NCBI GenBank assembly: GCA_963739995.1
Contig: CAVUCH010000001.1
Span: 153,521 to 217,520 of the forward strand
DNA from: Vicinamibacteria bacterium
Lineage (GTDB): Bacteria > Acidobacteriota > Vicinamibacteria > Vicinamibacterales > JAENWD01
DNA length: 64,000 nucleotides
Reading direction: 5' to 3'
The first letter of the stretch is position 1. Each line of letters begins with the position of its first letter. The position numbers and the translations under genes are program-made. The notes under the pieces were generated by a model that ran no database searches, was not told the DNA's origin, and was given only the letters and a program-made list of their open reading frames with translations. Below are positions 1,142-15,570 of the stretch, in pieces.

Positions 1142-1435
1142 ATGATCACCGGACGCCGCTACGTCGTATCGGGTCGTGTGCAGGGCGTCGGGTTCCGGTT
1201 CTTCGCGCGTGATGCCGCTGCGAGGGAAGGGATCCACGGATGGGTGCGCAACCTGCCCGAAGGCGCGGTGGAAATCGAGGCCCACGGGGATTCGGACGCG
1301 CTCACCCGGTTCGAGCGGGCCATCCGGCGCGGGCCGGCAGGTGCGCGGGTAGACGACGTGCTCGTGGATCCTGCGCCGCCCTCAGAGCGCCAGTACCGGC
1401 TTCCGCATCGAACCCTGACCGCAGTGATTGACTGA
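1142..1435 (+). CDS. acyP: Acylphosphatase
   Basis: VSGRVQGVGFR and GWVRNL motifs; the family-like C-terminus (..TGFRIEP*) is in another frame from ~1390, so a probable indel. Confidence 0.92.
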   Translation: MITGRRYVVSGRVQGVGFRFFARDAAAREGIHGWVRNLPEGAVEIEAHGDSDALTRFERAIRRGPAGARVDDVLVDPAPPSERQYRLPHRTLTAVID

Positions 1436-1443
1436 CACTCCAC

Positions 1444-1959
1444 ATGGACAACCTCAAAGACAAGATCCGGCACGTTCCCGATTTCCCGAAGGCGGGAATC
1501 CTCTTCTACGACATCACCACGCTGCTGCGCGAGCCGGCCGGGTTCCGGATGGTCGTGGATAGCCTCGCGCTCCCGTTCATGTCCGCTGCCATCGACGTCG
1601 TGGTGGGCATCGAGAGCCGCGGGTTCATCCTCGGCGGAGCAGTGGCGGACCGCATCGGCGCAGGGTTCTCTCCAGTGCGGAAGCCTGGCAAGCTGCCGTC
1701 GACGACAGTCCGTGAAAGCTACGCGCTCGAGTACGGGTCCGACGCGCTCGAAATCCATGCCGATGCGGTAGTCCCGGGTCAGCGCGTCCTGATTGTCGAT
1801 GACGTCATGGCGACCGGTGGCACGGCTCGGGCGACCGCCGCGCTCGTCCGGCGGCTCGGCGGCACGGTGCACGCCATCGCCTTTCTCATCGAGCTCGCCG
1901 CGCTGAACGGCAGAAGTCAGCTGACCGATGAGAACGTGTTCTCGGTGTTGAAGTACTGA
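1444..1959 (+). CDS. apt: Adenine phosphoribosyltransferase
   Basis: PDFPKAGILFYDIT, GIESRGF, RKPGKLP, YALEYG, VLIVDDVMATGGT (PRPP loop). Confidence 0.96.
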   Translation: MDNLKDKIRHVPDFPKAGILFYDITTLLREPAGFRMVVDSLALPFMSAAIDVVVGIESRGFILGGAVADRIGAGFSPVRKPGKLPSTTVRESYALEYGSDALEIHADAVVPGQRVLIVDDVMATGGTARATAALVRRLGGTVHAIAFLIELAALNGRSQLTDENVFSVLKY

Positions 1960-2704: not shown

Positions 2705-4618
2705 TCACCCAAGGTGAATGCGCGGACGCCTTTCCGGGACTCGCTCCGCCTGGCGCAGGACTTCGCGTGTGACGGGTGCCACATCGCCTTCCCCCAAGGC
2801 GAGGAACTTGAGCAAGTACGCAATGGGATTCCCTTCGGTCCACCCGAAGTATGCGTGTGGTGGCCTGCCCGTGCGATCTCGGATGTACAACAGCAGCGCC
2901 GCGAGCGCGTTCGGCACGGCCGGACTGGTGCACCGCAGAATCCGGTGAGGCCCGACGCTCGCGCCGCGGACGACCAGATGGTCGCTGAACTCGGACGCGT
3001 CGGTCAGTCGCACTTCGACGAACAGGGGCGAGTGATGGGACGCGAGCGAATGTGACTCGGCGGCCTCCCGCAGCTTGCCCTGGTACTCCTCGATGTCCCC
3101 CCGGTCCGGGCGGTTCGCAATCACACGCACGGCCGGGTCCGCTGCCTCGTCGATGAATCGGGCCGCCGATTCGTCCGGCTGCACCTCCACGATCCGGAGC
3201 TCCGTAGACCGCAGCACGCGCGAGATGAGCGATGTTCCGATGATCACGACGATGAAGATGGACGCGATCTTGATCCCTTCCGGCCGTTCGATGACATTGA
3301 CGATGGTGGTGTAGAAGAAGATTGCTGTGACGGTCGCGTACAGCCAGAACCGCCGGCGCTCACGCCACGCGACAAGGGTCACGGCAAAGGCCCCGGACGA
3401 CATCAGCGCCAGTACGCCTGTCGCATAGGCCCCCCCTTGAGCAGTGACGTCCGCTTTGAAGAGCAGCGTGACCAGAAACGTGATTGCCGTGATGATGACG
3501 ACGAGCGGTCGGGTGGCCTTGGCCCACTCCGGGGCCATGCCATAGCGCGGCAGGTAGCGGGGCACCAGGTTCAGGAGCCCCACCATGGCCGATGCGCCGG
3601 CGAACCAGAGGATGGCGATCGTGCTCAGGTCGTACGCGGTACCGAAGGCTTCGCCGAAATGCTCATGGGCAAGGTAGGCCAGCGCGCGGTCGTTCGCCGC
3701 TCCTCCTTCCTCGAACGCCTCGGCCGGAATCAGCAGCGTGGTCACGAGGCTGCTTCCCATCAGCATGACGCTCATGATCAACGCCGCGGTCGCGAGAAGA
3801 CGCCGTGCATTTCTGATACGGCCGACCGGATATTCGGGTAGATCGTCCGCGTCGCCGCGGACGAGAGGCATGACCGCCACGCCTGTCTCGAACCCCGAGA
3901 GGCCGAGGGCAAGCTTGGGGAAGAGCACGAGGGCCACCAGGCCCATCCTGAATGGGTTGCCGTGTTCCGCCACGAGCATCTCCTGCCAGCGCGCCAACAG
4001 TTCGGGATGCAGCCAGATGTGATGCAGGCCCCACGCGATCAGGACGACGTTCAGCAGGAGATACGCGGCCACGATCGGGACCGCCAGGCCGACGGCCTCA
4101 CGAAATCCCTTGAGGAAGACCGCACCGAGCGCCGTCAGGAGGAGAAGCGTGAGCGGCACGGGATGCCGCATCGCGAGCGGCATCATCGGATTCTCCAGGA
4201 TGTGCGCGGCGGCGTCCGCAGCGGACAGCGTCATCGTGATCACGAACGCGGTGGATGCGAACCCGAGCAGGCACAGGATCAGCGTCTTGCCCCGCCAGCG
4301 TGGCAGCAGCGTTCGCAGCAGCACGATGCTGCCTTCGCCGTGCGGGCTCAACTCGGCCACACGGCTGTACATCGGCAACGCCGCGAACAGCGTGAGCAGC
4401 ACGAGGACGAGAGTAGCCAGCGGCGAGAGCGTGCCCGCTGCGAGGAAGGCAATTCCCGGCTGATAGCCGAGCGTCGAGAAGTAGTCCACGCCGGTGAGGC
4501 ACATGACCTTCCACCATGCGTCGGTGTGCGTCGGCTGTGGGGGCTCCGAGCCCCCCTGCCGCATGCCGTGCATGAGCCATCGTCTGAAGCGCGAGCGCGT
4601 GTGCGTATCGTGCGGCAT
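2705..4618 (-). CDS. Amino acid transporter (APC superfamily) with soluble C-terminal domain
   Basis: 637 aa, ~12 hydrophobic segments, [41 protein letters not shown]. Confidence 0.85.
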
Positions 4619-4627
4619 CGAGCGGGG

Positions 4628-5179
4628 TCAATTGTTCCGAACGGACGGCCGGCGCCCCGCGGCGTCCGGCAGCTGCTGGCGCAGAGTGCGGACGAGCTCA
4701 AACACGTTCGTCTCCTCGCTGAGTTTCCGTGCGGATCTCTTCGTCGCTCGGCGAGGCATCCCGAGGCGTTCCGAGATGCGCCGCAGGAGCTTCAACATGA
4801 GGGTCAATTCCTGTTCAGCCAGCATACTGATCTGCAGGCTGAGGTGATCGCGCTCATCGCTCTGCCGACTCATTCGATTTTGTGCGATTAGCACGAAGGT
4901 CGCTATCAGCACCCCTCCAGCGACACGATGAACGTGAGGAGGCCATAGGGATCGAACCGCAGGGGTGGCGAGGCGAGTCCGTTCCAGGCAATCCAGGCGA
5001 TCATAGCCGCGGCATGGACGGACACGAACGTCATGGTGCCGACGAAGTCGCTGATTGCCTGTCCCACCCGCTCCCCGAGTGAGGCTCGCCGAATGGCCTG
5101 CCGCTCGACCTCGACGATGGCCTTGATGTTTTCCGTCGTCGGATCGGGGTGGCCCCTTCCCTCCGTCCTGCTGACGCAT
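4628..5179 (-). CDS. DUF1003 family membrane protein (compensating frameshifts)
   Basis: An alternate frame reads ENIKAIVEVE..FDPYGLLTFIVSLE and joins VLIATFVLIAQNRMSRQSDERDHLSLQISMLAEQE at a G run near 4915. Confidence 0.72.
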   Translation of the reverse strand: MRQQDGGKGPPRSDDGKHQGHRRGRAAGHSASLTRGAGGTGNQRLRRHHDVRVRPCRGYDRLDCLERTRLATPAVRSLWPPHVHRVAGGVLIATFVLIAQNRMSRQSDERDHLSLQISMLAEQELTLMLKLLRRISERLGMPRRATKRSARKLSEETNVFELVRTLRQQLPDAAGRRPSVRNN

Positions 5180-5312
5180 GGGCAGGGCCTGGTGCAAGGC
5201 CTACGCCCGTTCGACTCCAGCAGCCGCAGGGCGTTGGAAAACCAGACCGTTGCGCGCCCGTCTCCGGGCTCCGCCAGGATCGCGGGTGGCTCAGACGAGA
5301 CAGCAGGCTCAG

Positions 5313-5531
5313 TCAGGAGGCGCGGGTGTTGCGGGCGTCGTGACCGGCAAGGCGGCGGTCCATCATCTGTCGGCGCTCGGGATGCGACCAGACGAACGTG
5401 CAGTCATCGCATCGCAGATAGAAGAAGAAATCGGCGACGGTGGCGAGACGTACCCGCACGCTGGAGCATGATGGGCACGGGAAGCCACTGACCGGGGGGT
5501 GCGTCTCGGGATTGGGGTTACGCCTGTCCAT
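5313..5531 (-). CDS. Small zinc-ribbon protein (72 aa)
   Basis: CPSC-x18-CDDC-xxxW followed by ERRQMMDRR. Confidence 0.55.
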   Translation of the reverse strand: MDRRNPNPETHPPVSGFPCPSCSSVRVRLATVADFFFYLRCDDCTFVWSHPERRQMMDRRLAGHDARNTRAS

Positions 5532-6044
5532 ATGAGTGCGTGGATCGTATACGCACAGACAGCTGCCCGTCAGTGGCGGCATGCGCAATCGATGTCTGCG
5601 AGGAGACACCTGTATCGTCAATGACACGGCGATCCGGGTTGGGGGGCGCGAACTCACCCTGAAATGGAGGAGACGGTCGGCGATCCTGCTCGAAGCCGCG
5701 TCGCAGTCGTGCCGCTCGCGGGTCCTGCTTGCCCTGGGTTGGCGTGGAACTCGGCGCTCCGTCTCCTCCGGCCGCCACTCCCCGCGCTGCGTCAGGATCG
5801 GGCTCCGGAGGAACGCCAATCATGCCAGAGCGGACCGAACCGCCGTTTACACCACCGACGCGGCCGATCGCGACCGCCCTTTTCGTGAATGTTGCAGTGC
5901 CACTCACCACCCCTCAGCCATTAGCGGTTCCGGCCTGGTACTAGGACGTTGAGCCTATTGTCTGCACCGGGAGCGCCGCGTACGTTGGGTCCACAGCGCC
6001 GCGTAGGTTGGGTCCACATTCTCCGGCGTCCGAAAGGGATTTCG

Positions 6045-6329
6045 ATGGGCAAGTTGAGCGGCCTCGATGATAGCGATCACGGTGAGGCTCGGAGAACGTT
6101 CCTCAAGAAGGCTGCGTACGCCACCCCGGTGATTCTCACGCTGAAGGCGGTCCCCTCCTTTGCGTCCTATGGCTCGGGCCCGGGCCCAGCTCCCACGGGC
6201 CAGGGAGACGACGGTGTCGGCGAGGGCTTCAATCCGCACCCGCACAAGGGTCACAAGGAGAAAGCCCCCAAGGACAAGGCCCCCAAGGACAAGGCCGAGA
6301 AGCACGGAAAGCCGAAGAAGAACAAATAG
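6045..6329 (+). CDS. Small protein with twin-arginine/leader-like N-terminus and Lys-rich tail (94 aa)
   Basis: AAGGG SD-like site; RRTFLKKAAYATPVILTLKAVPSFA; 15-bp tandem repeat at 6264-6293 encoding APKDK x2. Confidence 0.7.
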   Translation: MGKLSGLDDSDHGEARRTFLKKAAYATPVILTLKAVPSFASYGSGPGPAPTGQGDDGVGEGFNPHPHKGHKEKAPKDKAPKDKAEKHGKPKKNK

Positions 6330-6519
6330 CGGCGTGTCGAGCCGCGTCCCCCGAAGGGCGACGAGGGGGTTGGGCTTGCTTCGCCTCGCGACGCGAGGTT
6401 GCGAGAACGAGCTCAGGAACACCGTGCGCCGCGTGTTCTTCCCCTTGTTGGCCGTGCAATGCGCGCTGCCCAGGTGCGGCTGCAGCTCATTCGCACGGGC
6501 GCTCGGAGCCTGGAGCCCC

Positions 6520-6705
6520 ATGATCAGCGATGCGCGGTTTCCCTGCCCGTGCGGCACGACGGTCCATGTGGAGTACGAGACGTCGGCTGGGTACATGATG
6601 CATCCCTGGCCCATCGCATGTCCGCAGTGTGCCCGCTCGATCCAGCGATCGTTGCCTGCAGTCCGCATCCTGTCGATCAGGGCGACATCGTTGCCACCGA
6701 ACTAG
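6520..6705 (+). CDS. Small Cys-rich (CxC...CxxC) protein (61 aa)
   Basis: GGAG SD then ATG; FPCPCG..IACPQC. Confidence 0.5.
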   Translation: MISDARFPCPCGTTVHVEYETSAGYMMHPWPIACPQCARSIQRSLPAVRILSIRATSLPPN

Positions 6706-6870
6706 AGTGGCGATCACATCCTGGCTCGGTGCTGAGGAGACGGCAGCAGTGCCAAGCTCGAGTCGTGATCCGGGTAATTGACTCCGGTGCAACGGAGCAC
6801 GATGTTGACGACCCATTAACAGGCCGTGGTGGCGCTGGCTCCTCGACACGCTGACGACGGAGGCGATCGA

Positions 6871-7068
6871 ATGGCCGCACTAGCCGATGCCGAGGCTGAA
6901 CTGGCGGCTCCGGCCGAAGTCGGCGACTTACGCGAGGCGCTCGCGCACGCGCTCGCGGTCGCTGCGCACGAGCAACGGCTGCGGGAGCAGGCGCAAGACA
7001 CCGCCGCCCGGGCCTGGCGTGTCACGACGACCTGGCCGCGCCGCGCCGACCGTCCCGGCGCGAGATGA
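6871..7068 (+). CDS. Hypothetical helical protein in element
   Basis: GGAGG SD 7 nt before the ATG; Ala/Glu-rich 65 aa. Confidence 0.5.
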   Translation: MAALADAEAELAAPAEVGDLREALAHALAVAAHEQRLREQAQDTAARAWRVTTTWPRRADRPGAR

Positions 7069-7083
7069 GCGCGTGCACGTTCG

Positions 7084-7113
7084 TTGACGCATCGTATGAG
7101 TATGTAATACACT
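7084..7113 (+). promoter_or_regulatory. Candidate sigma70 promoter giving a leaderless RHH mRNA
   Basis: TTGACG-18 nt-TACACT with the ATG 7 nt downstream; AT-rich spacer. Confidence 0.5.
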
Positions 7114-7120
7114 CGCGCCC

Positions 7121-7309
7121 ATGCCTGCGCGACGCATCATCAGCACGTTTCGGCTCGATCCGGACTTGCTCGACGGGTTACAGGCCATCTGGAAACGGGA
7201 CGGCGTACAACCCTCAGAACAAGTCCGGCGCGCGATCCGCATGTGGCTGAAGTCGCGAGGCATGGAGAAGGCGGACCGCAGGCGCGCGAGCACGCGCACG
7301 CGGTCCTGA
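7121..7309 (+). CDS. CopG/ribbon-helix-helix DNA-binding protein
   Basis: ISTFRLDPDLLDGLQAIWKRDGVQPSEQVRRAIRMWL matches the beta-alpha-alpha RHH pattern. Confidence 0.8.
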   Translation: MPARRIISTFRLDPDLLDGLQAIWKRDGVQPSEQVRRAIRMWLKSRGMEKADRRRASTRTRS

Positions 7310-7387
7310 GCCAGTCAGCAGCGTGAACCTGCCGACGTGCCTGCGAGCCAGTATCGCAGACCCGCCGGCCTCTCCTCTCGAGGCCCG

Positions 7388-7660
7388 ATGAAGATCTTCA
7401 CGACCGCAGACGAGACATTCGAGGCGCGGCTCCACGCCTATGATCGTGAGGTGTTATGGCTGGTCGATGCCACGCATGGACGGTATCAGTTTGCATTGGC
7501 GTTGCAAGGCGGCTGGCGCATCCTGGAGACCACGCCGACCGAGCGCGCGCTGCTCGAGGTGCATGGGTTCGCGAGCCGGGAGCGTGCAGTAATGCTGCGA
7601 AACTTCGGCGCACGCATCGAGCGCGCGGGCATTAAGGCGCTGCTCACGGGGAGGGAGTGA
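7388..7660 (+). CDS. Hypothetical protein
   Basis: GAGG SD, globular-looking 90 aa, stop overlaps the next start. Confidence 0.5.
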   Translation: MKIFTTADETFEARLHAYDREVLWLVDATHGRYQFALALQGGWRILETTPTERALLEVHGFASRERAVMLRNFGARIERAGIKALLTGRE

Positions 7661-8175
7661 TGAAGTGGATCGACGATGTGATGGCGAGTCAATGGCGCAC
7701 CCACGAGAGGGACCCGCGCTACCGCGACGCAGAGAACAATCCCACGCGCCTGGTCTGGCCGGCGCTGGTGACAGACCTGTGGCATGCCATCGAAGCTTTC
7801 AACCGCGGAGGCCGCAGAGCGGTTGAGCCTGCGGCATTCTTGGATGATGGCGGTGCCTACCGGGCGGTGTTCGGCGGTGAGTCAGTGTCGGTGCAGCTAC
7901 ACGAGCGGGAGTTTGTTTACATCTACACCGCCATGACTCCGGCATCGGCTGGCCGAAACACAACCATGGGCGCATTCTTTCAGCGCATCCAAATCTTCGG
8001 CCCTGACGACACCGAGGGTGGGTTGCAGCGCGTCATCAACGACGGTGAGCCAGAGATTCTGACGGTTGAAGCCAGCGGCGACCCGACCGCCGAGAGTTAC
8101 GACGAGACGCGGGCCAAAGTTGTCGAGTGGATTCTCGTTCCTCTCTTCGCGGTCAATGAAGGAAGCCGCCGATGA
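7657..8175 (+). CDS. Hypothetical protein
   Basis: 172 aa, coupled to both neighbours (overlaps at 7657-7660 and 8172-8175). Confidence 0.6.
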   Translation: MMKWIDDVMASQWRTHERDPRYRDAENNPTRLVWPALVTDLWHAIEAFNRGGRRAVEPAAFLDDGGAYRAVFGGESVSVQLHEREFVYIYTAMTPASAGRNTTMGAFFQRIQIFGPDDTEGGLQRVINDGEPEILTVEASGDPTAESYDETRAKVVEWILVPLFAVNEGSRR

Positions 8176-9523
8176 AATCCAAGCGCCAGCGTGACGACGG
8201 GCTGCGGAAGATCTGCGCGTGCCGCTCGTGGACGAGTGCGAAGTGTGATCACCCGTGGTACTTCTGGTACAAGGCCAAGGGCAAGCCCCGCGTGCGCGTA
8301 TCGCTGGACCGCTACGCCGGGTCGGCACGTCGAGAAGATCGAAGAGGCGAAGGGCTTTGCCGCCACGCTCCGCGGTGCCGTGGATGCGGGCACTTATCCA
8401 CCGCCGTCCGTGTCGCCAGAGCCGATCGCCGTCGTGACGTTTGCTGTGGCGGCGGATCGGTTCTGGAAGACGGTCCCGATCAAGAGGGGCAAGAACCAGG
8501 GCAAGCCGCGCGGGACGAACGAAGCGCAGATGATCGGCAAGCTGTGCGCCTGGACGCCTCCGGCGCGTCTGGGCGCTCGGCCAGCACTCCCCCGCCGACG
8601 TGACAGAGGACGTGCTCGAGGCGTTCACGGCGCACCTGCGCGAGCAGGGCCGCGCGGCCTCGACCGTCAGCAACTACATCCAGTTGATCAAGGCGATCGA
8701 CCGATGGCTGGCGCAGAAGGGCTATCGTCTGCTCCCGCCGTGAGCGGCGAGGCCGACGGCCTGCGCCGCGGGAAGGCCACCAAACGCCACCGGAGGCTCG
8801 TCCCCGACACGATCGACGAGCACGGCAAGGTGACACAGGAGGGCGAAGAGCGACGGCTCCTGAAGGCCGCGACCCCGTGGCTGCAACGGCTGATCATCGG
8901 CGGCGATCGAAACGGGCTGCCGCCGCGGCGAGTTGCTCGGCCTGACGTGGGGCGACGTGGATCTCACGCGCGGCGAGCTGACCGTGACCGGGCGACACGA
9001 ACAAGACCGGCCAGGGGCGCGCGATTCCGATCTCGCCACGGCTGCGGGCCGTGCTCGACCTGCTGAAGCTGGACCCGGCCGGTAAGGAGCGGTCCGCGGC
9101 AGCACTCACGTTTTCGGGGATGCGATCGGGCAAGCGGTGGCGTCCACGAAGAAGGGCATGGGAGACGGCCGTGCTCCGCGCCAACGGCATCGAGCCGACG
9201 TGGACCGCCAGTCGCGGCCTCGCGGCCGACGTCGCGCCGGGCGCTGCAAGCGATCGATCTGCACTTCCACGACCTGCGGCACGAGGCCGGCTCGCGGATG
9301 TTGGAATCGGGTTGGCCGCTGCATCACGTCCAGAGGATGCTCGGCCACGCGGACGTGAAGCAAACTGCGCACGTACCTGAACGCAGAGCGCGTCGGCCTG
9401 CACGACTCCATGAAGCGGTTCGGCACGACCCCCGCGTGGCAATCCGTGGCAATCACCCCGGTCGGAGAGCAACTGGCACCTGCCACGGCGAGGCGCCTAA
9501 AGCGCCGCAATCGAATCAAGTAA
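8172..9523 (+). pseudogene. Tyrosine recombinase/integrase, multiply frameshifted
   Basis: Stitched frames give LRKICAC..KCDHPW (N-term), ETGCRRGELLGLTWGDVD, NKTG, LHFHDLRHEAGSR, QRMLGHAD, TYLNA; about nine frame changes. Confidence 0.88.
9435..9454 (+). repeat. 10-bp perfect tandem repeat CGTGGCAATC x2 (candidate integrase arm-type sites)
   Basis: Seen ~80 bp from the tRNA 3' end; related GTGGCGATC at 6707-6715 and inverted TTGCCAC at 6691-6697. Confidence 0.5.
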
Positions 9524-9534
9524 CGGGTTTAGAG

Positions 9535-9611
9535 TGGCGTCCCCGGCAGGTCTCGAACCTGCGACCCCCGGTTTAGGAAACCGGTGCTCTATCCTGCTGA
9601 GCTACGGGGAC
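9535..9611 (-). tRNA. tRNA-Arg (anticodon CCT)
   Basis: Reverse complement folds as GTCCCCG/CGGGGAC acceptor stem, GCTC/GAGC D stem, CCGGT-TTCCTAA-ACCGG anticodon arm, GCAGG-TTCGAGA-CCTGC T arm, G-CCA end; 77 nt. Confidence 0.97.
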
Positions 9612-9638
9612 GTGAGGTTTTCGCTAACCAAGCATTCG

Positions 9639-10070
9639 CTAGGCACCGAGCTTGGCGAGGGGCGACGACGGCTCATTGTCCCTTTTCTGTCCCTGTCCCG
9701 CGACGTCAGGCTTCCGCGCGGCCTCGCGCAAGTCGCCAGCACTCGATGTTGTAGCGCTCGAACACCGAGGGAGCCTTGTGTCCGGTCAACTGCATCGCCG
9801 CGCGCTCCGGGACGCCCGCGCGCACCAAGTTTCGCACGGCCGTTCGTCGGAAGTCATGCAGGTGCGACCCGGACAGCCTACGGCCGCGCAGGCCGACGCC
9901 AACCCTTGCGGAATGAGCCGATGCGGGCGCCATTAGTTCTTCGTGAAGACGAGCCGTGGGATCATGCGCTTCAGCCGCTCCGCGTGCGCCTGCTGGTCCT
10001 CGAGCGCCCGGCGCAGTTCGGCCGTCATCGGGAATGTCCGCGCTTCCCAGTTCTTCGTGCTGTCGATGTG
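9639..10070 (-). pseudogene. C-terminal fragment of a second tyrosine integrase
   Basis: [17 protein letters not shown]..., [35 protein letters not shown]; frameshifts; N-terminal part not recognisable. Confidence 0.85.
9677..9699 (+). repeat. TGTCCC x3 (candidate arm-type sites of integrase 2)
   Basis: Copies at 9677, 9688 and 9694, between the integrase catalytic region and the tRNA. Confidence 0.4.
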
Positions 10071-10449
10071 GTTCCTCGACGAATCTATGACCTTGTCTCG
10101 TCGGTGCCCGATAGCGGCGCGATGCGTCGAGCGCGACCGGCGGAAGTGGAGCGGCTGATGACGACCAGACGCGCGTGGCCCTCGAGGATTTGCGCCGACA
10201 GCTCGAGATGGACGCCGACCGCACGGCCCGGAATCGCGCGGTGCTCCTTGAGCGCGCGGCTGAGCTCATCGAACGCCGCCACCCGTGCGACGTTTGAAAC
10301 CGCGTTCTTACGGATCCAGAAAGGGCACTGACCTGCCGTAATGGCGCTGGCGCCTTGCGGAGGCGTCAAGCGCCATTTTTCAAGGGAATGAGTCGATCGT
10401 CAGGGGGCACATTTCTTGCCCGGCCAAGTCGGCGAAGGGAGCGTGCAGC

Positions 10450-11082
10450 ATGCCGATACGCTCGTGTCCGCTCGTCGTCCTGGTCGCGACCGCCGCCCTG
10501 GTCGTGGCGTGCGAGAACCAACGCGCGCAACCGGTCGGTCCATCAAGTCTGTCGCATCCGGTCAGCCCGTCAACTCCAGAAAACGGCCAATCCGCCGTCG
10601 TTGCCGTGCCGGCGCAGGTCGCCTCGTCGAGGGGCGCATCGCAGCACGTTGTCACCCTCTTTGACGCCTGCGACCCCGAGACGTTCAATGCCGCGCTCGG
10701 TGCCGGATCGTGCGCGAGATCGGGAGGCGTAGAGTTCGCCAAGTTCCTGGAACAGCTCGGGCGCCATGGGGCGATTGGCGCTTGGCACTTCGCTCCCTCG
10801 ACTGTGACGATGCAGGTTGGGCAGCTGCTCGTGGCTAAGAACCGCGGGGGAGAGGCGCACACCTTCACCGAAGTCGAAGAGTTCGGCGGCGGGATTGTCC
10901 CGGAACTGAACGACCTCACGGGATTGACGAACGTCGCACCCGAGTGCAATCAACTGATGGGCAGTGATTTCCTGGCGCCAGGCGCTTCGTCGAGCGAAGA
11001 AGAAGAAGAAGCCGGCGTCGAGAACTATCAGTGCTGCATCCACCCGTGGATGCGGGCTCAGGTTCGGGTCACGGAGAAGTGA
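10450..11082 (+). CDS. Cupredoxin/plastocyanin-like lipoprotein
   Basis: Lipobox LVVAC; type-1 copper-like ligands GEAHTF ... YQCCIHPWM. Confidence 0.75.
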   Translation: MPIRSCPLVVLVATAALVVACENQRAQPVGPSSLSHPVSPSTPENGQSAVVAVPAQVASSRGASQHVVTLFDACDPETFNAALGAGSCARSGGVEFAKFLEQLGRHGAIGAWHFAPSTVTMQVGQLLVAKNRGGEAHTFTEVEEFGGGIVPELNDLTGLTNVAPECNQLMGSDFLAPGASSSEEEEEAGVENYQCCIHPWMRAQVRVTEK

Positions 11083-11496
11083 CGCTACGCGGACGACATC
11101 CGCGAAGCAATGTCGTCGGTGCCAGCGGGATGGTCCTCGCGACGAAAGATGGCGCGTCCGGCACTCGCTCGGACGCGCCGTAGGCCCGCCGTCGGCGTTG
11201 CCGCGTCTTTCTGAATCGCGGCCACGAACTCCTGCAAGGCCTCCGCGGCCACGGATCGGTTAGAAACTGCGAGCCGCCACTCTGCGAGTGCTTCTAGAAC
11301 TTTCCTGTGTCAGCGGTCCGTGACTCTCGCGACCCGTCCCGCGATTGCACGTGTGGGAAGACCTGCCGGGAACGCCACACATGTGTTCTACACCCGCTGC
11401 GTGCGTGCGGGCCGTTGAAAATGGCGAGAGCGCGCGTGGCGCGCTGCGTGTGCGAGGCGGGCCGAGCGACCTTCTCGTCATCCCGTGCGCGTAACG

Positions 11497-11766
11497 CTAC
11501 GTCTGTAGGGGTTCCTCGTCGACGGCGGGCAGGTGGTGGACGGCGGCCGCGCAGTCTCGCGCGGCTTCGCTGATGATCTTGTTGGTCCGGAGCACCGATT
11601 CCATGTCCGACACGAGCTGGCGCTTGAGATACGCTCTCGCGTCTCTGCGTTCGCGAAACTGATCGATGATTCGCTGGGCATCGGTCAGGGCGCGAAGCTG
11701 CTCCTCGCATTGGGTGCGAAGATCCCATAAGGATGCGGAGACCATGACGATGCTGGTGTCTGGCAT
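11497..11766 (-). CDS. Hypothetical helical protein (89 aa)
   Basis: Amphipathic helical pattern; no recognised family. Confidence 0.45.
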   Translation of the reverse strand: MPDTSIVMVSASLWDLRTQCEEQLRALTDAQRIIDQFRERRDARAYLKRQLVSDMESVLRTNKIISEAARDCAAAVHHLPAVDEEPLQT

Positions 11767-11841
11767 GGCGGCGAACAGTGCTTACGTGTCTGCGCCTCGC
11801 ACGGCGACTCCCCAGGGAATTCAGGACTACGGGACGTGAAC

Positions 11842-11857
11842 GGCCCGCAGCCTATCA
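11842..11857 (-). promoter_or_regulatory. Candidate original tRNA promoter (extended -10 plus GC-rich discriminator)
   Basis: Minus strand reads TGaTAGGCT-GCGGGCC-GTTCAC-GTCCCGTAG, a promoter followed directly by a stump of the tRNA 5' end. Confidence 0.5.
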
Positions 11858-12113
11858 CAGAAACCGCGCAACAAAGCCGGTGCCCGCGAGCATGTTTGCG
11901 CCGTTGTAGTCGACGCGGAGCAGCGGCAGCGCCGGGTGCCACACGGATCGCGCCGTGCCGGCGGGGCGCCTCCGCGCCCTCGGTGCGACGCCGGTCTTTC
12001 ACCAGGCTGCTAGGGGCGGCGCCGGTCGAGCAGGGGTGCAAAGTCGCGCCCGCTGCCCGGCCGTATACAATCAATCGTCGAGGTCACCTGAACCAGCACT
12101 CATCGGAGGCCAC

Positions 12114-12377
12114 GTGTCAGACACCAAGAAGATCCAGGCGAAGCTGCAGAAGGCGGAGGCGGACGCCGACCGCGAGCGGACGAAGCTGCGAGCGAAGGCT
12201 GAAAGCAAGATCGCGCGAATCAAGAACGAACTCCGCGCCGAGGAGTCGAAGATCGCGGCGAAGGTCGAGCGGAAACGCGAGAAGACTGCACTCAGGCTCG
12301 CGGCCGCGAGCGCCGCGGCGGGGAGCGACGGCAGGGGCAACGGGCGATCGTTGAAAGCGCGGCCGCAGGGCCGATAG
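12114..12377 (+). CDS. Small basic coiled-coil protein
   Basis: GGAGG SD before GTG, TACAAT -10 at 12066-12071; K/E/A-rich heptads. Confidence 0.6.
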   Translation: MSDTKKIQAKLQKAEADADRERTKLRAKAESKIARIKNELRAEESKIAAKVERKREKTALRLAAASAAAGSDGRGNGRSLKARPQGR

Positions 12378-12396
12378 GCAGCGGCAGGGAACCGGG

Positions 12397-12816
12397 TCAG
12401 TGCACGGTGGCCAGCCGCCCGATCACCCCGCCGTGCGCCACGAGCACGGTGGGGTCGCGCTGCAGCAGCTCGTGGTACCGCCGGCCGAACGGCGCCTGCC
12501 CGTCGGTGAGCAGCGTGCGCGTCCGCTCCACGAACACTGCCGCGCGCTCGTCGGTCACCGGTTCCTCGCCGTCCAGCAGTTCATCGATCTGGACGATCAG
12601 CTCGGAGACGGGCCGCAGCCAACTAAACCACTCGTGCTGCAGCGCGAGCTGCAAAAACTCCTGGCTCGACGCGATCCGGCCCTTCGCGCGCTCGTAGCCG
12701 ACGCGTTCGGACTCGAGCAGCGCCTTGTGCAGCCGCAGCAACCCGTCCCGCACGCCGTGCAATCGCCCGCGTGCATGCCGTGACCCCTCCGGCCTGCTGC
12801 GCCCCGCGTCCGCCAT
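12397..12816 (-). CDS. Conserved hypothetical helical protein
   Basis: LLRLHKALLESER..YE...GRI..WFSWLRPVSELIVQIDE; GGAG SD. Confidence 0.7.
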   Translation of the reverse strand: MADAGRSRPEGSRHARGRLHGVRDGLLRLHKALLESERVGYERAKGRIASSQEFLQLALQHEWFSWLRPVSELIVQIDELLDGEEPVTDERAAVFVERTRTLLTDGQAPFGRRYHELLQRDPTVLVAHGGVIGRLATVH

Positions 12817-12870
12817 CCTCACTCCAGCTACTCCGTCAGCCTGTCGTCCATTGATGATAGCGCGACGCCG

Positions 12871-15570
12871 TTACCGCGTCTCCAGGCCTTCTGCGATGGT
12901 GACCTGCACCTTTCCCGTCTGGGTGTTCGCGCCCAGCTTGATGGTCACCTCGTACTCTCCGGGCGCGACGAACTTCGCGCCCTGGCCGCCGTATGCGTTC
13001 AACATGTCCTTGGTCGGCTTGAGATCCCACACGAGCCGATTGAATCCGGGCAGCGCCGGGCCTGAGAAAGACGCCACCGCCGCCCCGGTAGGCCCTTTGA
13101 TGGAGATGGTCAACGGCTCGCCGGTGAACTCGCGTACCCACACGTCTATCCGCGCGCCTCCCGGCGGGTTCGCGCCGCGGAAAACGCCTCCGCTGCCCCC
13201 CCATTCCACCCATCCGGGCAGCGGTTCGAAGCCGGACGCGGGGCTCAGCGGAAACAGAAAGGCCGGATGCGTCATCACCTCGGGAGTGAGACGCTCGAGC
13301 GGGCCGATGTCGTCCAGGATGTACAGGCTCCGTCCGTGGGTGGCGATCAACAGGTCGCGCGTGCGCGGGTGCACCAGGATGTCATCCACCGGCACCGCCG
13401 GCAGACCGCCGATCGGGATCCACGTCGTGCCGCGATCGAAGCTGGCGTACAGGCCGATCTCGGTGCCAGCAAACAGCAGGTCCGCATTCGCCGGATCCTC
13501 ACGCACGACGCGCACCGGCCAGGTGGCGGGGAGGTTCCCGGCGACGCTCTGCCACGTGCGCCCGAGGTCTGCGGTGCGATAGACGAGCGGCGCGTAGTTG
13601 CCCCCGTGATAGGCGCTCACCGCCAGGTAGGCGACCTTGTCATCGGCGTGCCCCGGTTCGACGCGAGCGATCCACTGATCCTTCGCCGCTGCCGGAAGGC
13701 TCGCCGTCAGATCCGTCCACCTGCCGCCCTCGTCTTCGGTCACCCACAATTTGCCGTCATCGGTGCCGGCCCACAGGAGCCCCGCCTTGCGGGAGGAGAC
13801 GCCCAGCGTGAAGACGACGCCGTAGTTCTCCGCGCCGCTGCCTACCGTGATGATGCGCTCCGCGCGGCGCGCCGACAGGTCAGGGCTGATCGTCTTCCAC
13901 GTCTCGCCGCGTTCGGTCAGCTTGAACACCCGGTTCCCCGCGAGATACATCGCGCCCTTCTCGTGCGGGCTGGCGACGAGCGGCGAGTTCCAGTGGAACC
14001 GGAAAGCGGGCTGTCCTTCCTGCGGCTCGGGTCGGAGCATCTTGACGGCCCCGCTCCCGAGGTGCATGCGGTGGACGAACCCCTGCTGCGACTCGGCGTA
14101 CACGACGTGGCGGTCAGAGGGATCGAACACGCAGTAGAACCCGTCGCCGCCGCCGATGTTGATCCACTCCGCGTTGGTGACCCCGTCCTTCGACCGCGTG
14201 GCGCTTGGCCCCACCCAGTTCACGTTGTCCTGGAGCCCGCCGCAGATCCTGTACGGCGCGCTGTCGTCCACGGCCACGCGATAAAACTCGCCGATGGCCA
14301 TCGTATTCACGTGGGTCCACGAGGTGGCGCGATCGTACGTCTGGTACACGCCGCCATCGGTGCCGAGCAGCATCCGCGCCGGGTTCCTGGGGTCGATGGC
14401 GAGAGCGTGGGTGTCCGGATGCACCTTTGCGAAGCGATCCTCGCGGAAGGTCTTTCCCCCGTCTTCGGAGACGTGCAGCATGAACCCGAGGACGTACACG
14501 AGGCGATCGTCCTGCGGGTCGACGCGAATCTTGCTGAAGTAGAAAGGACGCGGGTTCAGCGCGCTCGTCCGCGTCCAGGTGTCGCCGCCATCGGCAGACC
14601 GGAAGACGCCGCCGCGCCTGCTGAGCACCTCATCGATGCTCTGCGTCCCGCCATCGCTGCTCTGGACGATCGCGACGATCACCTTCGGGTTCTTCGCGAA
14701 GACGGAGAGCCCGATTCGTCCGGTCTGGACGGGCAGGCCGCCGGCCAGTTTCTTCCACGTGGCGCCTGCGTCGACGCTCCGGTAAATACCACCCACGTCG
14801 CGGCCCTTCGTGACGTCCGTGCCCGCGTCGAACGACCAGGGCGTGCGCCGCCGTGCGTAGAGCACGGCGTAGACGGTGTTCGGGTTCTGCGGATCAATTG
14901 CGACGTCACCGCAGCCTGTCGTGACGTGATCGGGCGCGGGCGCCTGCAGGATGGGCTTCCACGACCCACCGCCATCGGTCGTCTTGAAGAGACCACGCTC
15001 GGCGTTGTCGTTCCAGAGATCGCCGATGGCAGCCACGTAGGCGACCGCCGGGTCGGTCGGATGCGCGGCGATTCGCGCCACCGCCTTCGTGCCGCGGAGG
15101 CCGGGGGCGGCCCACGTCGTGCCGCCGTCCGCGGATCGGTAGACGCCCGTGCCCCAGCCGGAGCTGTTGCGATCGTTTGCTTCCCCGGTGCCGAGCCAGA
15201 TGACCTTCGGATCGGAAGGGGCGACCGCCACGGCGCCAGTCGAGGAAAAGTCCTGCTTGTCGGTAAGGGCCGTAAAGGTTCCGCCGTTGTTGCTCGTCTT
15301 CATGAGCCCGCCATGCGCGGTGGCGACGTAGAACGTCCATGGATCCTGCGGGTCGAGGGCGATATCGGAGATGCGCCCGCCCATCACCGCAGGACCGATG
15401 CTCCGCGCAGCCAACGGCTTGAGCATTGCGGCGGAAGGCGTCGGGCGCGATGGCGTGCCAGTCTCGCGAGTCGCGTCGACCGGTTTTGCGGCCGGCTTCC
15501 GGCTCTGTGCCATCGGTGATGGAGACAGCGAGATGATGAGTAAAGCGATGGCGGCGGCGCGTTGCGTCAA
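12871..15570 (-). CDS. Secreted BNR/Asp-box (VPS10/sialidase-like) beta-propeller glycosyl hydrolase
   Basis: Signal peptide; RSIGPAVMGGRI; many SxDGGxTW Asp-boxes; GGLQDN; GGDGF; RFHWNSP; ATHGR. Confidence 0.88.
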   Translation of the reverse strand: MTQRAAAIALLIISLSPSPMAQSRKPAAKPVDATRETGTPSRPTPSAAMLKPLAARSIGPAVMGGRISDIALDPQDPWTFYVATAHGGLMKTSNNGGTFTALTDKQDFSSTGAVAVAPSDPKVIWLGTGEANDRNSSGWGTGVYRSADGGTTWAAPGLRGTKAVARIAAHPTDPAVAYVAAIGDLWNDNAERGLFKTTDGGGSWKPILQAPAPDHVTTGCGDVAIDPQNPNTVYAVLYARRRTPWSFDAGTDVTKGRDVGGIYRSVDAGATWKKLAGGLPVQTGRIGLSVFAKNPKVIVAIVQSSDGGTQSIDEVLSRRGGVFRSADGGDTWTRTSALNPRPFYFSKIRVDPQDDRLVYVLGFMLHVSEDGGKTFREDRFAKVHPDTHALAIDPRNPARMLLGTDGGVYQTYDRATSWTHVNTMAIGEFYRVAVDDSAPYRICGGLQDNVNWVGPSATRSKDGVTNAEWINIGGGDGFYCVFDPSDRHVVYAESQQGFVHRMHLGSGAVKMLRPEPQEGQPAFRFHWNSPLVASPHEKGAMYLAGNRVFKLTERGETWKTISPDLSARRAERIITVGSGAENYGVVFTLGVSSRKAGLLWAGTDDGKLWVTEDEGGRWTDLTASLPAAAKDQWIARVEPGHADDKVAYLAVSAYHGGNYAPLVYRTADLGRTWQSVAGNLPATWPVRVVREDPANADLLFAGTEIGLYASFDRGTTWIPIGGLPAVPVDDILVHPRTRDLLIATHGRSLYILDDIGPLERLTPEVMTHPAFLFPLSPASGFEPLPGWVEWGGSGGVFRGANPPGGARIDVWVREFTGEPLTISIKGPTGAAVASFSGPALPGFNRLVWDLKPTKDMLNAYGGQGAKFVAPGEYEVTIKLGANTQTGKVQVTIAEGLETR

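Follow-up and report, generated by a model that had tools for sequence, protein, structure and literature searches.

In a stretch of 64,000 nt from a Vicinamibacteria bacterium (here called the window; positions 153521-217520 of contig C1 in the window's own genome, G000:C1:153521-217520), the gene for tRNA-Arg(CCT) stands immediately behind the broken 3' end of an integrase gene that points in the same direction. Sequence comparison and analogy with intact elements of the same integrase family suggest that this relic is probably the integrase-proximal end of a mobile element that integrated in reversed orientation and carried the 5' part of the tRNA. Reversed-orientation integration into tRNA genes at the anticodon stem-loop is known but rare, and the relic would be a decayed member of this group. 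As a rule the host promoter stays with the tRNA gene when an element integrates; insertion into the 5' part departs from this and makes the element, or its fossil, drive a gene of an essential type. The argument is carried by four features, all on the minus strand of the window:

9535-9611, minus strand: intact tRNA-Arg(CCT) gene (ARAGORN; Rfam RF00005, 65.8 bits)
9612-9638, minus strand: spacer of 27 nt between the frame-restored stop codon of the integrase relic (9639-9641) and tRNA position 1 (read from the sequence, the three-frame translation and the comparison of loci)
9639-10130, minus strand: integrase pseudogene, C-terminal part only, with several frameshifts and one in-frame stop (Pfam, three-frame translation, tblastn)
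9677-9699, minus strand: three GGGACA repeats, GGGACAGGGACAGAAAAGGGACA, the only cluster among the 32 GGGACA sites of the window and the best-conserved upstream block

An integrase relic shared by related genomes

ARAGORN reports one tRNA, tRNA-Arg(CCT), and an Rfam scan of 8000-13000 finds nothing besides it. It is the sole CCT isoacceptor found in its own genome, where the other checked matches are TCT, TCG and CCG (a match on contig C23 was left out). Two broken integrase genes flank it: the relic on its 5' side and a second pseudogene, int2, on its 3' side. The initial annotation of this DNA had described an integrase remnant pointing into the 5' end of the tRNA, and this description stands. 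The open reading frame (ORF) at 9706-10269 on the minus strand matches PF00589, if weakly (E 2e-5; 24.9 bits, under the cut-off of 27.1), and when the full-length relatives P0119 and P0041 are used as tblastn queries, only residues ~228-373, the C-terminal third, align, in two frames, with window positions 10061-9687. The N-terminal two thirds are absent; what survives reads HDFRR...GH...ERYNI and is 83-87% identical to full-length members of the family.

The same relic, 77-83% homologous, lies at the same place in two genomes of the same genus, G001 and G002, and in L145, a 2.4-kb metagenome contig found by scanning with the pattern of the GGGACA repeats (the scan showed no new arrangement beyond L145). 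Window positions 9534-9875 align with G002 at 82% over 350 nt, and 9529-10034 align with G001 at 77% over 523 nt, in each case immediately upstream of a 100% identical tRNA; L145 has the same integrase-tRNA junction at 83%. All 77 positions of the tRNA are the same in the window, G001, G002 and L145, and the integrase is truncated and frameshifted in all four sequences. Because the junction is common to the four, the tRNA identical and the integrase decayed in each, the event must be old and predate the divergence of the species; the idea of a recent island that separates the tRNA from its promoter gives way to a junction found genus-wide. The identity of the tRNA in four genomes in which the surrounding DNA is only ~80% identical implies that the gene is in use. 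The best-conserved block outside the tRNA across the four loci is 9677-9699. The initial annotation had named a tRNA natively preceded by the 9612-9700 sequence in relatives as evidence against an island at the 5' end; the relatives' tRNA is preceded by exactly that sequence, yet only because they share the same relic.

What did the element leave behind when it entered? In G001, 1.68 kb upstream of the complete tRNA gene and just behind a Crp-like gene, positions 1-43 of the tRNA occur a second time, displaced but on the same strand. This copy is identical at 35 of 37 positions from 7 to 43 (E 1.7e-9), differs from the tRNA in the acceptor strand and has one 1-nt deletion in the anticodon loop. 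This fragment is what reversed-orientation integration leaves behind. The Crp-like gene of G001 has no orthologue at the locus of the window genome; its best match there, 35% identical, is on another contig. Within the genus, no empty-site allele was found in G001, G002 or L145. In the sister genus, G013 has the gene for adenine phosphoribosyltransferase (apt) directly followed by tRNA-Arg(CCT), with no integrase, but this tRNA is only 53/77 identical to that of the window.

At the end of contig C8 of G001 (L030 16500-18137), IS3-like and IS110-like transposase ORFs, assigned to families from their translations, lie directly downstream of the tRNA; they probably explain the end of that contig and the presence of a tRNA 3' fragment at the end of contig C35.

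Reversed orientation within the integrase family

The conserved C-terminal stretch of the relic retrieves 2200 longer proteins of ~340-460 amino acids (aa), and the homologues that come with a source name are mostly labelled Acidobacteriota or Vicinamibacterales. An alignment of 11 homologues led to 80 loci on genome contigs, and ARAGORN was run on all 80, with the following outcome:

34 of 80 loci: antisense tRNA at most 200 nt downstream (the usual layout, in which the integrase 3' end lies beside the tRNA 3' end)
7 of 80 loci: sense tRNA 44-103 nt downstream (L057, L070, L088, L090, L095, L097, L118)
5 of 80 loci: tRNA farther away
34 of 80 loci: tRNA not found (9 of these with less than 250 nt of downstream flank)

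The initial annotation had proposed surveying these integrases for co-oriented adjacency to tRNA 5' ends, and the survey bears out the layout as a recurrent minority: a tRNA lies within 200 nt downstream of the integrase at 41 loci, and 7 of these 41 are reversed. This frequency suggests that the reversed layout is no one-off in the family.

Two of the reversed loci still have the repeats expected of an intact element. In G044 (L057), a co-oriented integrase precedes tRNA-SeC by ~100 nt, and another 13.1 kb upstream, with contig and strand unchanged, comes a 42-nt, 100% identical copy of tRNA positions 1-42; ~100 nt past this displaced fragment there is a pair of GGGCACAAC repeats of the same type as the pair on the integrase side. 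In G042 (L118), an intact integrase of 357 aa lies 68 nt upstream of a tRNA-Arg(CCT). Its 42-nt, 100% identical copy of tRNA positions 1-42 is on another contig, where it comes after a promoter-like TTGCGG...TATATT and is followed by matching repeats; 6 kb downstream of the tRNA there is a 3' fragment (tRNA positions 30-77), whose overlap with the 5' fragment falls in the anticodon stem-loop. The distal attachment (att) sites of the two elements, each made up of tRNA 1-42, ~100-115 nt, and paired GGGCACAA-type repeats, are these:

L147 1250-1700 (G044:C118): distal att site of the G044 element
L139 1300-1750 (G042:C36): distal att site of the G042 element

Both are ready test objects for this mode of integration. 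As the anticodon stem-loop is common to the 5' and 3' repeats, we infer that the crossover core likely lies there. The first 10 nt of the tRNA plus its leader, which the initial annotation had taken for the att site, do not fit: the repeats of the family extend over tRNA 1-42 and share the anticodon stem-loop with the 3' fragments.

Paired repeats such as GGGCACAA also occur at the position analogous to that of the three GGGACA repeats in family members of both orientations, and repeats of this type recur beside the displaced 5' fragment in G042 and G044. By analogy, the GGGACA repeats of the window can be read as arm-type integrase-binding sites of the integrase-proximal att arm.

Is reversed orientation, then, a property of a particular class of integrase, as the initial annotation had supposed in assigning this class to tRNA 5' ends? 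The tree speaks against it, as does the usual orientation of 34 of the 41 tRNA-adjacent members. The tree, a quick maximum-likelihood one, holds 76 integrases of the family and the window relic, whose breaks were bridged with X; since four of the 80 loci have no ORF of at least 250 aa, L090 is absent and six sense rows remain. These six need 6 state changes, against a mean of 5.8 for shuffled labels: the sense L118 has the antisense L104 as its partner, and the antisense L081 groups with two sense rows, L088 and L095. The window relic falls in a supported group of 20 rows that holds one sense and four antisense members, a coarse placement since the relic fills only 29% of the alignment columns. 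Reversed orientation is thus no trait of the integrase class, its members being scattered on the tree. Neither the frequency of 7 in 41 nor the scattered distribution was reported in the literature searched, although the searches were not designed to exclude a prior report.

Tyrosine integrases reportedly use anticodon-loop tRNA integration sites, the "class I" sites of Williams's work of 2002. The repeats of G042 (tRNA 1-42 and 30-77) overlap at just this anticodon stem-loop, and ordinary islands of the int2 type displace tRNA 32-77; a usual class I identity block begins at the crossover and extends to the 3' end, whereas that of the reversed members begins at position 1 and extends to the anticodon stem. 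For reversed-orientation integration, the literature cites Zhao and Williams (2002) together with four archaeal studies. The element of Zhao and Williams (2002) reportedly resembles the window in having the integrase upstream of and co-oriented with the restored tRNA, and it resembles the history proposed below in three ways: (i) the element gives the 5' part; (ii) the displaced 5' fragment stays with the native promoter; and (iii) the tRNA depends on transcription from the element side. It differs in that the window relic is ancient, decayed, genus-wide and without a distal end, and in that the window tRNA also bears relics of ordinary 3'-side islands, in a block that would later have been inverted. 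The Islander algorithm keeps candidates with a 5' fragment upstream of the tRNA gene, while fragments in opposite orientation are rejected and used as a measure of false positives (PMC4383910). With the reversed layout recurring at scattered points of the family (7 of 41), island-finding tools and att-site predictions should allow for it.

Proposed history of the tRNA-Arg(CCT) locus

An element with a tyrosine integrase, arm-type sites and tRNA positions 1-42 just downstream of the integrase would have entered the resident tRNA gene in reversed orientation, by recombination at the anticodon stem-loop; the DNA from 9612 to ~10130 would be what is left of its integrase-proximal end. The working gene would then consist of the element's 5' part and the resident 3' part and lie immediately behind the integrase. 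Integration would have preceded the divergence of the three sampled species of the genus; the integrase would then have decayed to a frameshifted C-terminal stub, and the far end of the element, with the displaced 5' fragment and the distal arm, would have been lost in the window genome.

If the element supplied the 5' part of the tRNA, where does transcription of the gene begin? The native promoter would have been left with the dead 5' fragment. Only 27 nt separate the old stop codon from the tRNA, and no terminator-like site was found in this spacer (9612-9638), so transcription would have to come from within or through the relic; the tRNA would accordingly be transcribed from element-derived or upstream DNA. 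With the relic kept beside a perfectly conserved tRNA throughout the genus, the locus may be a natural example of a host tRNA whose expression depends on mobile-element DNA.

Several results weigh against this history. No displaced 5' fragment of the tRNA is detectable as a direct repeat in the window or in G002, and no second cluster of GGGACA sites was detected in the window; the case for reversed integration here therefore rests on orthology with G001 and on analogy. The G001 fragment might, in principle, have come from a different tRNA gene. Among the reversed loci, the genomes of six of the seven were searched for tRNA fragments (L097 was left out), and in four of these six (L090, L070, L088, L095) there is no convincing 5' fragment, at most a weak match of 28 nt. 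A scan of 9400-12200 on both strands for the sigma-70 consensus gives no promoter-like site, in the relic or elsewhere, although the scan needs both hexamers and so does not exclude an extended -10 promoter. Contigs from an RNA library (tRNA pieces, 10087-10338 and 11968-12138) give no showing of transcription or of transcript starts. The inversion of the block, discussed below, is itself deduced from three or four relatives and one repeat of 20 nt.

Could the tRNA instead have arrived whole? That a mobile element brought in a complete tRNA-Arg(CCT) as cargo, with no resident gene targeted, is an unlikely account, for which one comparison speaks: at the apt-linked locus, the tRNA-Arg(CCT) of G000, G001 and G002 is only 50-53/77 identical to that of the sister genus (G007 and G013; L042, L045), whereas tRNA-Arg(TCT) of the same two genera is 74-75/77 identical. 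This divergence, as aligned here, was not reported in the literature searched, in searches not designed to exclude a prior report. However, the displaced fragments end at position 42 or 43, which means that the elements carry only part of the gene, and the locus is still linked to apt. Elements of both orientations that replaced the 5' and 3' halves one after the other would also explain the divergence, and the tRNA-Arg(CCT) of the genus may have been replaced through such element-borne halves.

The reversed-orientation history can be extended on this basis to a bolder version, which we put forward as a possibility that we ourselves rather doubt: that the tRNA-Arg(CCT) of the genus is a chimera of element-borne halves, with positions 1-42 from a reversed element and the 3' part from ordinary islands that used the same anticodon-loop site; that it replaced the ancestral gene at the apt locus and is now transcribed from the domesticated fossil of an integrase 3' end; and that the switch between 3' and 5' carriage arose repeatedly in the family. 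Traces of ordinary islands are present on the other side of the tRNA:

8172-9520, plus strand: int2, second integrase pseudogene, of another subfamily (tblastn with a G007 homologue of 380 aa, which aligns piecewise in frames 1, 2, 3 and 1; three-frame translation)

This pseudogene converges on the 3' end of the tRNA, which is the usual orientation of an island, and in this it resembles the relic of an ordinary tRNA-borne island, unlike the 5'-side relic, which shares its strand with the tRNA. A direct 3' fragment was sought to the left of the tRNA (4600-9514) and not found: the best match there scores 23, a score reached by 30% of shuffles. The intact pattern is seen in G007, which has the same layout, with a 10.8-kb island on the 3' side of the tRNA and a displaced 3' fragment of 46 bp (tRNA 32-77).

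G007 also offers a parallel on the 5' side. At G007:C18:720388-720860 (L042 2858-3200; L048 388-854), an int2-like C-terminal remnant lies between apt and tRNA-Arg(CCT), co-oriented with the tRNA and ending 24 nt upstream of it: the same picture in a second genus, with an integrase of a different subfamily. In the window's own genome, a further tRNA-Arg gene has collected fragments: at G000:C4:452180-472035 (L002, L004, L007), tRNA-Arg(TCT) is followed 8 and 20 kb downstream by two 3' fragments (query positions 36-77 and 34-77; 88-89% identical), which are probably a tandem array of islands.

A probable inversion of the block, and the 13-nt repeat

Three further features of the window bear on how the block around the tRNA was rearranged and on where the element might end:

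1399-1956, plus strand: apt, ancestrally the gene next upstream of tRNA-Arg(CCT) (tblastn, 71% identity, E 1.2e-80)
11359-11378, plus strand: inverted copy (19/20) of tRNA 58-77 plus the first trailer base (blastn-short, E 0.001; shuffle test)
11827-11839, minus strand: the 13-nt repeat (TCAC + GTCCC-GTAG) called a stump in the initial annotation, here judged a chance match (61/500 shuffles equal; no homologue in relatives)

The inverted copy is the sole significant tRNA-derived repeat nearby: its local alignment score is 35, against 20.1 +/- 2.3 for shuffled sequences, and none of 300 shuffles reached it. It looks like a displaced 3' fragment, one that extends from the T-loop as far as the 3' end. 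Gene order also differs from that of the relatives. G001, G007 and G013 have apt and the tRNA in the same direction, while in the window apt (plus strand) opposes the tRNA (minus strand); the flank from 12079 on, which faces the 5' end of the tRNA in the window, faces its 3' end in G001 and G002. Flank identity puts G001 closer to the window than G002, and the orientation in the window is therefore the derived one. The comparison indicates that a tRNA-bearing block was probably inverted in the window lineage, with its right end at or near 11359. Two versions are possible: a small flip, in which the two inverted 3' cores bound 9554-11358, and a large flip of ~4600-11358. The latter would restore the canonical order of apt, relic, tRNA, int2 island and 3' fragment; no tRNA-derived sequence was found near 4600, where its left breakpoint would lie. 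The stretch 10130-12078 is a later mosaic.

Three DNA runs from soil or rhizosphere and one RNA run, that of the RNA contigs above, were compared with 4000-13000. Metagenome contigs are colinear with the window over 9717-11287 and 11367-12004; none crosses 11287-11367, and no strand-changing joint is listed. The best-matching DNA run may be the sample from which the window was assembled.

A rearrangement that moved an ordinary 3'-side integrase to the 5' end of the tRNA, for example by inverting the tRNA between two convergent integrase genes, is highly improbable: two convergent integrase pseudogenes do flank the tRNA in the window and in G007, and the window genome has the signature of an inversion, but the same junction, spacer and arm repeats occur in four genomes, two of them without the inversion, G001 has its displaced 5' fragment, and intact family members have clean 42-nt 5' repeats.

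The initial annotation had read the locus as an island of 2.2 kb (9612-11826) that entered by a crossover within the first 10 nt of the tRNA and 4 nt of its leader, and had placed the native promoter at 11827-11870. There is very little chance that this is right, although the sequences it describes are present. A string search of the window finds CTACGGGGACGTGA at 9602-9615 and CTACGGGACGTGA at 11827-11839, and TGTGATAGGCTGCGGGCCGT comes next on the minus strand. A TGaTAGGCT and a GC-rich stretch precede the repeat. When the 10-nt leader plus tRNA 1-43 is compared with the 2.47 kb upstream on the same strand, the repeat is the best direct-orientation match (score 21); it lies near the start of the conserved flank (12079), and inversion of the entire block, if it took place, would put the native upstream end on this side of it.

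Yet 61 of 500 dinucleotide shuffles (12.2%) equal its score. With the whole tRNA +/-20 nt as the query, an unrelated 11-mer outscores the repeat, which is then no longer the best direct match, and blastn-short with the tRNA does not list it among matches up to E 5. Four of its 13 matching bases belong to the leader, a duplication that is unexpected, since in two intact family elements the repeat identity begins exactly at tRNA position 1 and extends over 42 nt instead of 10. No arm-type repeat lies near the 13-nt match, the inverted 3' fragment of the tRNA lies inside the supposed island, and no consensus promoter appears in the scan. The right flank tells the same story. Searched in 40 relatives, 11840-13400 has homology only from 12079 (G001) or 12129 (G002), and on the 3' side of the tRNA in both; 11840-12078 has no match except a multi-copy repeat of 67 bp, and no empty site joining 11840 and beyond to a full tRNA was found. 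The 13-nt repeat is a chance match and marks no island end. In practice this is a correction, in that the repeat and its "promoter" are unfit as island boundaries; the idea of an island at the 5' end was correct in kind, as the 5' fragment of G001 and the two intact 42-nt repeats attest, and mistaken in its att site, far boundary and promoter.

Searches in relatives with 10035-11860 and 4600-9534 gave paralogous or island-type matches only, and tblastx of the locus against relatives was dominated by high-GC noise. The composition profile shows no island signature.

One gene in the mosaic stands between the integrase relic and the inverted tRNA fragment:

10450-11082, plus strand: ORF of 210 aa, lipoprotein-like, with a C-terminal CxxHxxM (CCIHPWM) (ORF list)

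It has no Pfam match; a weak match in the PDB (5fc9_A, E 0.14) is to a blue copper domain, and CCIHPWM is presumably the CxxHxxM of small blue copper (cupredoxin-like) proteins. Its homologues, with 64-71% nucleotide identity, lie at other loci in nine related genomes. Further right, the GC-rich repeat of ~67 bp (11948-12017) looks REP- or MITE-like: seven further copies (87-97% identity) lie on other contigs of the same genome and weaker copies in many genomes of the order, with no match in Rfam. To the left of the tRNA, 5972-6017 is a tandem duplication of 23 bp (repeat family D18) whose two copies are perfect but for one position: AGCGCCGCGTA[C/G]GTTGGGTCCAC.

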